Origin: a virus
Lineage: Duplodnaviria > Caudoviricetes
DNA length: 59,801 nt
Virus record (IMG/VR): IMGVR_UViG_3300046654_000013
Coordinates: 1 to 59,801 of that record
Reading direction: 5' to 3' (one strand)
Shown: positions 35,868 to 37,178 of the stretch, piece after piece
Layout of the letters: each line of letters starts with the position of its first letter
How positions within the stretch are numbered: the stretch's first letter is position 1
Position numbers and translations under genes: made by a program
Notes under the pieces: model-generated
Seen by the model: the letters and a program-made list of their open reading frames with translations, nothing else
Database searches by the model: none
Told to the model about the DNA's origin: nothing

Positions 35868-37178
35868 ATGGATGCTGTAAAATATGCGCCGTTCAACGAA
35901 AAGACTGTCCAGTATTTTAGAGATTGTATTGATCCTAAAAACTGGCTTCTTTGCGCTGAGGGCGGCAAGTAGCGCGCTGGTAAAAATATTATTAATATTC
36001 TTGCGTGGTGTACGGTACTTGAAACACACCCAGACTACCTGCACCTTGCAGGAGGTGTGTCAAACAGTACTGCAAAACTTAATATAATTCAGTCTAATGG
36101 ATTTGGCGTTGCTAACTACTTTGCAGGGCGTTGCCGCGAAGGTCAGTATCAAGATCGTGACGCTTTGTATATAAATACTAAAGTTGGCGAAAAAGTAATT
36201 ATTATTGGCGGTGGTGCAAACAAAGCATCAAATAAATTGATAAAAGGTTTTACTTTGGGGTCAATTTACGTCAGTGAAGCAAATGAATGTGATGAATCAT
36301 TTATTAAAGAATGTTTTGATAGAACTATATCAAGTAACTTGCGTAAGATATTTTTTGACATTAACCCTAAAAACCCGCAAGATTACTTTTATACTGAAAT
36401 TCTTGATGTTCATGAAGAAAATTCATTAACATATAAGAACTACGGTTATGTCTGGCAACATTTCACGATCGCAGACAACATGTCGATTACTGACGAGCGC
36501 ATGGCTGAGATATTAACCACATATAGGCGAAACTCTATCTGGTGGGAACGTGATATCGCGGGGCTTCGAACGGCGGCAGAAGGTATTGTTTATTCCAACT
36601 TTACAGATAAAAATAAATATGTTGATGGCGACGACCATTCGCCTAATTTTGATTTGTACTACAACAGACATTATGTAATTGACTACGGGACAATTCATCC
36701 ATTTGCTTGTCTGGAAATGATTGAGCAAACAATTGAGGGTGTAACAAATTATTATTGCAATGATGAGTATTATTATGACTCAACAAAAACTCACAAAGAG
36801 CTTGCCCCGTCAGATTACGCTGATGCAGTTGAAAAGTTTATTGATGGTAAACGTACCAAGGCTATTATTGTTGATCCAGCAGCGGCAGATTTTAGGGCAG
36901 AGCTAAGAAAACATAATCAGCGGTCAAAAGAAACTGCCCCGACAATTAATGCAGACAATGAGGTTGTTGCGGGAATACGACTTGTAACAAATCTTTTGCA
37001 AACAAAAAAACTTTGGATAAACAAAAAGTGTGTTAATTTGATTAAAGAGCTTTCTGCATACATCTGGGATGCTAAAGCAGCAGAGCATGGCAAAGAACAA
37101 GTTGTTAAGGTAAACGATGATGCTTGTGACTGCTTGCGCTACTACTGTAAAACCATTGTAAAATCATATAAAATATAA
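35868..37178 (+). CDS. terL: Terminase large subunit (PBSX-like) with an in-frame TAG at 35970-35972
   Basis: AEGGK*RAGKN Walker A, YVSEAN Walker B, DINP, IDYGT, VDPAA, DDACDCLRY; the ORF track starts at 36057 and omits the P-loop. Confidence 0.88.

Follow-up and report, generated by a model that had tools for sequence, protein, structure and literature searches.

The virus record IMGVR_UViG_3300046654_000013 (Duplodnaviria; Caudoviricetes), analysed here over its whole length of 59,801 nt and called the window hereafter, carries an in-frame TAG codon within the Walker A motif (P-loop) of its gene for the large terminase subunit (TerL). This gene is a PBSX-type phage large terminase gene, the only one of the phage, and its TAG is one member of a real and recurrent class of coding gaps that begin with a stop codon. 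On balance, we lean towards the view that the TAG is a 3-nt gap in a specialised, programmed recoding cassette, and that ribosomes cross it by an in-frame stop-hop.

The TerL frame runs from the ATG at 35868 to the TAA at 37176-37178 over 436 positions (protein P0001), with position 35 as its sole internal stop. The first-pass annotation had placed a TAG at 35970-35972, codon 35, with an intact frame on both sides, and both the sequence (GCT GAG GGC GGC AAG TAG CGC GCT GGT AAA AAT) and the translated frame bear this out. In Pfam, the protein scores 24.7 bits with Terminase_3 (cut-off 23.2) and 22.8 bits with Terminase_6N (cut-off 22). At E<=0.001, 907 database proteins match it, many of them named PBSX family terminase by their source, and it aligns over its full length to PBSX-family terminases carrying PF17288/PF17289; its own Pfam scan yielded neither of these domains at E<=0.01. 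The gene order TerS - TerL - portal is present, with 44 nt between TerS and TerL, and the whole 59.8-kb record contains a single TerL match, which bears one TAG.

The TAG is an added codon rather than a substitution, because neither the nearest homolog nor any of the other homologs that cover the site has a residue there. In an alignment with 26 homologs, the column is empty in 15 of the 15 that cover it (the remaining 11 begin 3' of the site and are uninformative), and the closest of all, P0003 (80% identity, 433 aa), reads AEGGK-RAGKN. When the TAG column is ignored, EGGK[TAG]RAGKN matches the EGGKRAGKN of all 15, as expected from the earlier proposal of a clean one-codon insertion whose removal restores the motif. 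A tblastn search against phage records gave one unbroken alignment across the stop, the best match spanning query residues 7-430. It is also correct that a product initiated at the downstream GTG at 36057 would be devoid of the P-loop. As for the GGAGG that had been assigned to this GTG, it sits at 36051-36055, 1 nt before the GTG, and is made by conserved L-A-G-G-V-S codons, so that it is unlikely to serve as a ribosome-binding site.

Contigs of four public runs were mapped to positions 35300-37300; these are contigs and not reads, and they would hide any minority TAG-free alleles. Run X1, the likely source of the record, covers the entire stretch at a depth of 15.2. Run X2 contributes a 767-nt contig (depth 5.4) over 35595-36361, TAG included, with 0 differences and 0 gaps; its sample and study code differ from those of X1, and it is also a 2025 peat metagenome, possibly from the same campaign. 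Runs X3 and X4 hold only small parts 5' of the site and are uninformative on the TAG. The same AAG[TAG]CG junction is found in L167, a locus from another collection whose protein is 52% identical to the window TerL, and one 5-nt form of the insert comes from a cultured isolate, Megasphaera cerevisiae DSM 20462 (genome scaffold L084). In the viral collection, no other viral contig matched the exact 30-mer directly 5' of the TAG.

The recurrence of such inserts emerges from a survey of 241 sequences, namely 80 relatives from each of three collections and the window, scored by the distance between the EGG and GKN codons in any frame. Eight sequences without a recognisable anchor (L107, L112, L115, L116, L118, L132, L149 and L151) were excluded. 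Among the 233 scorable loci, the spacing is canonical in 219, longer by 5 nt in 12 rows and longer by 3 nt in two, with no insert of +1, +2, +4 or +6 nt. All 14 insert rows begin with TAA, TAG or TGA. Removing duplicates leaves 164 distinct genes, ten of which are interrupted (Table 1), always at one of two neighbouring codon boundaries, after the second Gly codon (site A) or after the Lys codon (site B), and always with the stop directly 3' of the take-off codon. Eight of these ten have 5-nt inserts led by TGA, TAA or TAG, which require a change of frame. Given that a random insert begins with a stop with a probability of 3/64, the pattern has a probability of ~5e-6 even if just four events were independent. 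The site-A genes all use GGT as the take-off Gly codon (5/5, vs 24/154 intact genes). The last triplet of the gap agrees with the take-off codon at 17 of 30 positions, where chance would give 7.5; L022 alone shows full identity (GGT to GGT), and the window, like L167, scores 2/3 (AAG to TAG). Neither boundary carries a sense-codon insert in any of the 233 loci. In the viral collection, alleles in which CGN-GCN-GGN follows the site likewise lack one at K|R, and pattern scans of that collection for any 3 or 5 nt at this boundary returned only chance matches and two contigs already in the set. The absence of sense-codon inserts indicates that the length of the P-loop is strictly conserved, which favours a product without an extra residue. 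A fecal contig, L258, has an intact TerL with no gap.

All ten interrupted genes are open on both sides of the gap: the stretch that extends from YAPF to EGG comprises 26-28 conserved codons, the part 3' of the gap encodes 396-478 aa before a normal stop, and no second lesion is present. When interrupted lineages are compared with one another, pN/pS ranges from 0.12 to 0.54 on the 5' side of the gap and from 0.22 to 0.45 on the 3' side, and is 0.40-0.54 for codons 1-34 of the window against the other interrupted genes, values that overstate dN/dS because synonymous sites are near saturation. These ratios point to purifying selection on both sides of the gap. In a FastTree phylogeny of the downstream 360 aa only, built from 59 of 162 usable rows (loci up to 35, 81-100 and 161-185, plus every interrupted gene), the ten fall in one 35-row clade (10/35 rows, ~29%) that also includes prophages of Desulfosporosinus, Sporomusa and Megasphaera; the sister clade, with 24 rows, has no interrupted member. 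Within the clade, interrupted genes adjoin intact sisters (L018/L013, L016/L017, window/L001).

The pair L021 and L022 suggests how the gap moves. Their DNA is identical over ~4,070 nt; of the 4313 aligned columns, 55 differ, every one of them among the first 245, and the two loci diverge further upstream. As the differences cluster around the site, the 5' module is exchanged, gap included, by recombination. Fast turnover of the insert in place, envisaged for these near-identical proteins, was rejected, since a recombination mosaic explains the difference. In L018, the true, gap-bearing TerL start is preceded at ~100 nt by a 21-codon remnant of a TerL 5' end (~nt 2992-3060), similar to that of the intact sister L013. 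This remnant looks like the scar of a 5'-module replacement. Vestigial TerL 5' ends were rejected as a general scar, as L018 alone has one.

The interrupted genes also share a leader. A sequence of the GGAGGTGAT type followed by a short spacer and the start codon precedes ten of the ten and none of the 19 intact in-clade genes examined, which abut the end of TerS instead; L002 and L019 merely resemble it. In the interrupted genes, the spacer is complementary to the codons ending at the take-off codon. The longest continuous complementary run is 7-10 bp in all ten (10 bp in the window), as opposed to 3-6 bp in the 19 intact genes, and by the same rule unconstrained folds contain at least nine leader-to-take-off pairs in eight of the ten (not L167 or L018) and in none of the 19 (maximum 8). 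The unconstrained fold of the window over 35836-35990 (155 nt) has a free energy of -51.7 kcal/mol (z -3.48; 0/200 shuffles as stable), with the AG of the stop bulged. From one site class to the other, the 3' arm of the helix shifts along with the gap. In a register-anchored alignment of the site-A genes, 95.6% of 45 cells are paired, against 47-60% when the partner columns are slid. Two pairs change on both sides, one of them occurring as GC, AU, UA and GU, and the covariation score is 0.333 vs 0.125 for shuffles (reached by 9/500 shuffles), with five sequences per class and a structure derived from those same sequences. For site B, 91.8% of 49 cells are paired, without a covariation signal because the arms are invariant. 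In the window fold, positions 35839-35846, upstream of the Shine-Dalgarno sequence, also pair with 35973-35981 just after the TAG. As a second helix on the resume side this was rejected, being unshared by the other interrupted genes: its best runs reach 3-7 bp in the interrupted genes, compared with 3-8 bp in the intact ones.

The neighbourhood of the gap provides a further clue. In five of the ten interrupted loci, the open reading frame (ORF) directly upstream of TerL is of a homing-endonuclease type (Table 1). The 44 upstream ORFs of 22 intact in-clade loci include one GIY-YIG (L002), one HNH_3 and one HNH match, the last two not located relative to TerL. The first-pass annotation had listed a mobile-element excision scar among the alternatives; as stated this is wrong, but a link to endonucleases does exist. 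At L002, a GIY-YIG ORF (~nt 2418-2942) with a domain layout resembling that beside the gap-bearing L022 precedes an intact TerL that has neither gap nor leader helix. Either the cassette at this locus has lost its gap, or the endonuclease came without a gap in the first place.

The TerL family is a frequent target of selfish elements, as the gene of the Megasphaera cerevisiae DSM 20462 prophage (NZ_LEKT01000043.1; L084, identical to L012; ~nt 4460-5400) is also split at a C-terminal intein by an HNH-type ORF. There, a TGA closes the N-extein and the N-part of the intein. Next comes an HNH-type ORF that stands free and has a ribosome-binding site of its own, after which the C-block of the intein and the C-extein resume in another frame, a layout of the 'fractured gene' kind. 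P0005, which is 71% identical to the window TerL, ends at the same point as the intein split. An intein at the TAG itself was rejected, since in the alignment the inteins of homologs lie at a C-terminal NDH|C and not at Walker A.

The mechanism that most likely fits both gap lengths and an invariant P-loop, judging from these sequences, is a short forward hop. The elements of the cassette would be a Shine-Dalgarno sequence close to perfect, a spacer able to pair with the E-G-G-K codons ~100 nt 3', 34 sense codons and the stop. With peptidyl-tRNA(Lys) on AAG and UAG in the A site, termination would fail; the ribosome would then move 3 nt, the tRNA would re-pair with the A and G of UAG, and decoding would resume at CGC. 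The same event would span 5 nt in the relatives. The product of the hop would have the canonical EGGKRAGKN loop, and full-length, active TerL would be made in this way only. We infer that the event is a hop and not readthrough, and that the helix and the strong Shine-Dalgarno sequence tune it. Since the helix cannot form with a ribosome on the ribosome-binding site or on the take-off site, a ribosome paused on the stop would free the ribosome-binding site, whose strength would let following ribosomes load and push. The resulting ribosome collisions may then favour forward slippage. This geometry of leader and helix is unlike known bypass stimulators, and the role we assign to the helix is a guess. 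The likely effect would be low or conditional synthesis of the terminase. As for the origin of the gap, it may have arisen as a protection against a homing endonuclease that was lost from the window or never present in it. The idea that an essential late gene depends on non-standard decoding, put forward in the first-pass annotation, is thus supported in its core, but its context has become a recurrent class in which most gaps change the frame.

The closest published case is the terminase of the Streptomyces phage phiHau3, for which, with two prophages, Smith et al. 2013 proposed candidate bypassing (PMC10732093). Its type comprises 10-nt and 7-nt gaps led by the rare UUA after a Gly take-off codon, in 3/100 ter genes, and mass spectrometry of a UAA version in E. 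coli showed the bypass junction (PMC10732093). Both systems affect a large terminase and involve short, frame-breaking inserts between sequences that are adjacent in relatives. Both have a Gly codon directly before the gap (in a KGWG context in phiHau3) and a slow-to-decode codon leading it; both are rare among relatives, and for both a stem-loop with a Shine-Dalgarno stimulator and a regulatory role have been proposed. In contrast to the 7- or 10-nt gaps of phiHau3 with their sense UUA, those described here are of 3 or 5 nt and led by any stop, in another terminase family and another host phylum. They also occupy two adjacent boundaries, affect ~29% of one clade, include one in-frame form, and have the spacer of the gene's own ribosome-binding site as the pairing partner.

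In T4 gene 60, a 50-nt bypass is carried by the MobA homing-endonuclease element (bioRxiv 10.1101/2022.08.31.505936, PMC5009743). As in our genes, the codon directly after the take-off codon is a stop, the gap interrupts a conserved portion of an essential gene, and a free-standing endonuclease gene (HNH or GIY-YIG, here in 5/10 relatives) is the immediate upstream neighbour. Together with the gap moves a divergent copy that replaces the coding sequence around it, of which the L021/L022 mosaic and the L018 remnant are reminiscent, and some genomes have the cassette without the endonuclease. Unlike the present gaps, that of gene 60 spans 50 nt (20 nt in one clade), its take-off and landing GGA codons match, and it needs a nascent-peptide signal and a take-off hairpin; we found no such hairpin, the landing match is partial here, and the window has no endonuclease neighbour. 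A further parallel is provided by synthetic stop-hops and +5/+6 hops in E. coli (attributed to Weiss et al. 1987 in PMC5009743 and PMC10732093), in which peptidyl-tRNA re-pairs a few nucleotides 3' across a stop, in-frame hops included, but these were engineered and of low efficiency. A 2016 recoding review knows of no natural in-frame stop-hop (PMC5009743). In open sources (not subscription journals or supplementary files), we found no 3- or 5-nt stop-led gaps in a terminase P-loop. It is tempting to go further and speculate about a horizontally moving micro-bypass cassette, delivered by endonucleases as self-immunity, with hops of 3-5 nt and a helix that couples ribosome loading to occupancy of the gap and thereby sets the amount of packaging ATPase. 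The window would then harbour the first natural in-frame stop-hop. We regard this extended scenario as tentative.

Several points weigh against a hop or against its proposed history. All the evidence is computational and stems from DNA sequence. The TAG leaves the frame of the window unchanged, and readthrough would also yield a full-length protein with G-x4-GK. Landing matches mostly concern one or two of three positions, in cases that are not phylogenetically independent, and the covariation analysis suffers from its few sequences and its circularity. Around the stop, no consistent local hairpin was found (z -1.98 to +0.50), and the long-range helix cannot act like the 5' stem-loop of gene 60 because its 3' arm is inside the ribosome at take-off. 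Three isolated plaque-forming phages, Flasso, phiS13 and PVJ1, are all intact, with the gap in 0/3. As for the endonucleases, their enrichment (5/10 interrupted vs 1-2/22 intact loci) has a Fisher p of 0.006-0.019 that is uncorrected for phylogeny, the GIY-YIG ORF of L002 stands directly upstream of an intact gene, and in the window no endonuclease gene lies beside TerL, whose direct upstream neighbour is TerS.

The main rival to a hop, which we nevertheless hold to be unlikely, is amber readthrough or suppression, in which UAG would be decoded as an amino acid, inefficiently by a near-cognate tRNA or as pyrrolysine in a host with pyl genes, giving EGGK-X-RAGKN at a host-dependent level. It is a real rival for the window because the frame is continuous across the TAG and, with the second glycine, G-x4-GK still fits. 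In the window and L167, the two cases of 3 nt, the stop is TAG and never TAA or TGA; however, UAG re-pairs best with the Lys tRNA leaving AAG, so that a hop predicts this preference equally. The last 3 nt of the 5-nt inserts, taken as codons, correspond to small residues with synonymous variation (ACG/ACT, GGT/GGA, AGC), in keeping with one extra residue in every variant. Yet an extra sense codon is found in 0/233 scorable loci, which suggests that an extra residue in the loop is not tolerated, and since 8/10 interrupted genes need a frame change, with TGA or TAA used as well, amber decoding or pyrrolysine is not the general mechanism.

Pyrrolysine decoding as known in Desulfitobacteriaceae also involves an in-frame UAG, the source is a peat metagenome, and relatives of the phage inhabit pyl-positive Desulfosporosinus: PylS_Cterm scores above its cut-off in 3/3 Desulfosporosinus genomes carrying related prophages. 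On the other hand, the phage has neither pyl genes nor a tRNA with a CUA anticodon, and the relatives use frame-changing, TGA- or TAA-led gaps, one of them (TGACG) in Megasphaera cerevisiae, which has no PylS match; the Megasphaera and Sporomusa genomes gave none. Host amber decoding, as suggested in the first-pass annotation, receives some support for the TAG-only form from the Desulfosporosinus genomes, and these other observations speak against it.

TAG terminates 7 of the 61 long + strand ORFs of the window, which would make efficient global suppression costly, and genome-wide recoding of TAG was rejected on these ORF statistics. TerL is the only TAG-joined frame tied to one gene by homology; the other 11 listed frames may simply be neighbouring genes in the same frame. 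At 50817-53051 (+), reading through the TAG at 51081 would join 88 and 656 codons, upstream of a 654-aa ORF at 51087-53051.

The sole tRNA-like gene of the phage, at 34649-34741 (+), scores 29.6 bits with Rfam RF00005 (gathering score 29). A phage suppressor tRNA was rejected, since its anticodon region contains no CTA, TTA or TCA triplet. ARAGORN lists it as tRNA-??? and assigns it an anticodon of four bases. Its acceptor, D and T arms have a normal appearance, and 30 nt, including a GTAA-capped hairpin, replace the 11-nt anticodon region, so that the gene could be intron-bearing or degenerate. It is absent from the flanks examined of the other interrupted loci.

It is improbable in our view that the gene is dead and that a defective phage or prophage carries the TAG as an inactivating lesion, left for example by a nuclease. 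A stop in Walker A that is read normally would abolish packaging, this gene family is clearly a target of homing endonucleases, and the three cultured phages checked are all free of such a gap. Terminal repeats are absent from the contig, whose last ORF is cut off at the 3' end. However, lesions occur only at two adjacent boundaries, only as 3 or 5 nt and always stop-first; none of the ten genes has a second lesion, and selection appears purifying on both sides. A dedicated leader and helix covary with the site, and the sequence is identical in two runs. Moreover, the genes for TerS, portal, head morphogenesis protein, protease and tail fibre are all intact in the window, and CheckV rates the record as 100% complete despite the lack of terminal repeats. 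The defective genome considered in the first-pass annotation is thus unlikely, given the recurrence of the inserts, purifying selection and the intact neighbouring genes.

Slightly less probable still is classical -1/+2 frameshifting in the 5-nt relatives, with separate readthrough of the 3-nt form, adding one or two residues. Both the -1 and the +2 paths are open through all eight 5-nt inserts, the former yielding Leu-Ser, Leu-Gly, Val-Thr or Met-Thr, and frameshifting is known to be stimulated by an A-site stop and by a GAGG-like sequence 5' of it, as described for prfB (PMC10732093). Nevertheless, a slippery heptamer is absent from both sites, two mechanisms would be required for one type of cassette, the longer P-loops predicted are never seen as sense insertions, and frameshifting is inapplicable to the window, where -1 or +2 reading reaches a TAA within five codons. 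Finally, metagenome contigs can be wrong and our comparison involved contigs rather than raw reads, but an independent run with 767 identical nt, the L167 junction and an isolate with a 5-nt form make a sequencing or assembly error barely credible, and refute that suggestion of the first-pass annotation as far as contigs allow.

Very few systems of translational bypassing are known in nature. The interrupted genes add ten divergent alleles, which differ in the length (3 or 5 nt) and the position (site A or B) of the gap, use all three stop codons and have an RNA partner that covaries. Such a collection could serve as a mutational series in which to study the mechanism of short hops and the determinants of their efficiency, and one allele is available in a non-pathogenic cultured isolate, Megasphaera cerevisiae DSM 20462. 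If the endonuclease link is true, the protection logic of T4 gene 60 and MobA extends to another essential gene and another group of phages. Of practical relevance, gene callers truncate interrupted TerL genes, and such phages could therefore be misjudged as defective: the window TerL is recorded as a 373-aa product (P0002), and the Megasphaera TerL (P0033) starts after the gap.

Table 1. Features of the TerL region of the window, and gaps and upstream ORFs of the interrupted relatives
Locus	Feature	Position or sequence	Strand	Remarks
Window	TerS gene, 162 aa	35335..35823	+	PHROGs phrog_309 terminase small subunit, E 3.2e-48; directly 5' of TerL
Window	Extended Shine-Dalgarno GGAAGTGAT of the TerL leader	35850..35858	+	Unpaired, in an open internal loop of the minimum-free-energy fold
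Window	5' arm of the helix, spacer from Shine-Dalgarno to ATG	35857..35867	+	Pairs with 35960-35970
Window	TerL codons 1-34, MDAVKYAPF...LLCAEGGK	35868..35969	+	Conserved residues of the family kept; last codon, AAG 35967-35969, is the take-off codon
Window	3' arm of the helix, GGGCGGCAAG + U of UAG	35960..35970	+	E-G-G-K codons; equivalent arm covaries with the leader in site-A relatives
Window	Extra TAG codon, 3-nt stop-led coding gap in Walker A	35970..35972	+	Alignment, contigs, spacing survey
Window	TerL remainder from resume codon CGC (RAGKN...) to TAA	35973..37178	+	Rest of the ATPase domain and C-terminal region
Window	Portal gene, intact	37197..38720	+	Pfam Phage_portal_3, E 2.7e-107
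Window	Gap, site B	AAG[TAG]CGC
L167	Gap, site B	AAG[TAG]CGT
L012 = L084	Gap, site B	AAG[TGACG]CGC
L025	Gap, site B	AAG[TGACG]CGG		Upstream ORF HNH_3 + AP2
L021	Gap, site B	AAA[TGACT]CGT		Upstream ORF HNH_3 + AP2
L014 = L170	Gap, site A	GGT[TAAGC]AAA		Upstream ORF HNH_3 + AP2
L016	Gap, site A	GGT[TAAGC]AAA
L018 = L174	Gap, site A	GGT[TGAGC]AAA
L022 = L023	Gap, site A	GGT[TAGGT]AAA		Upstream ORF GIY-YIG (L022)
L173	Gap, site A	GGT[TAGGA]AAA		Upstream ORF HNH_3

A few other features of the window deserve mention. A Pfam search with the TerS protein gave no match. The last ORF, at 58605-59801 (+), which runs off the 3' end of the contig, is tail-fibre-like according to PHROGs tail matches. A radical SAM domain protein (phrog_9298) is encoded at 19920-21005 (+), adjoining a helicase, and an 820-aa D5-type primase-helicase (D5_N, DUF5906, Pox_D5) is encoded at 30717-33179 (+).

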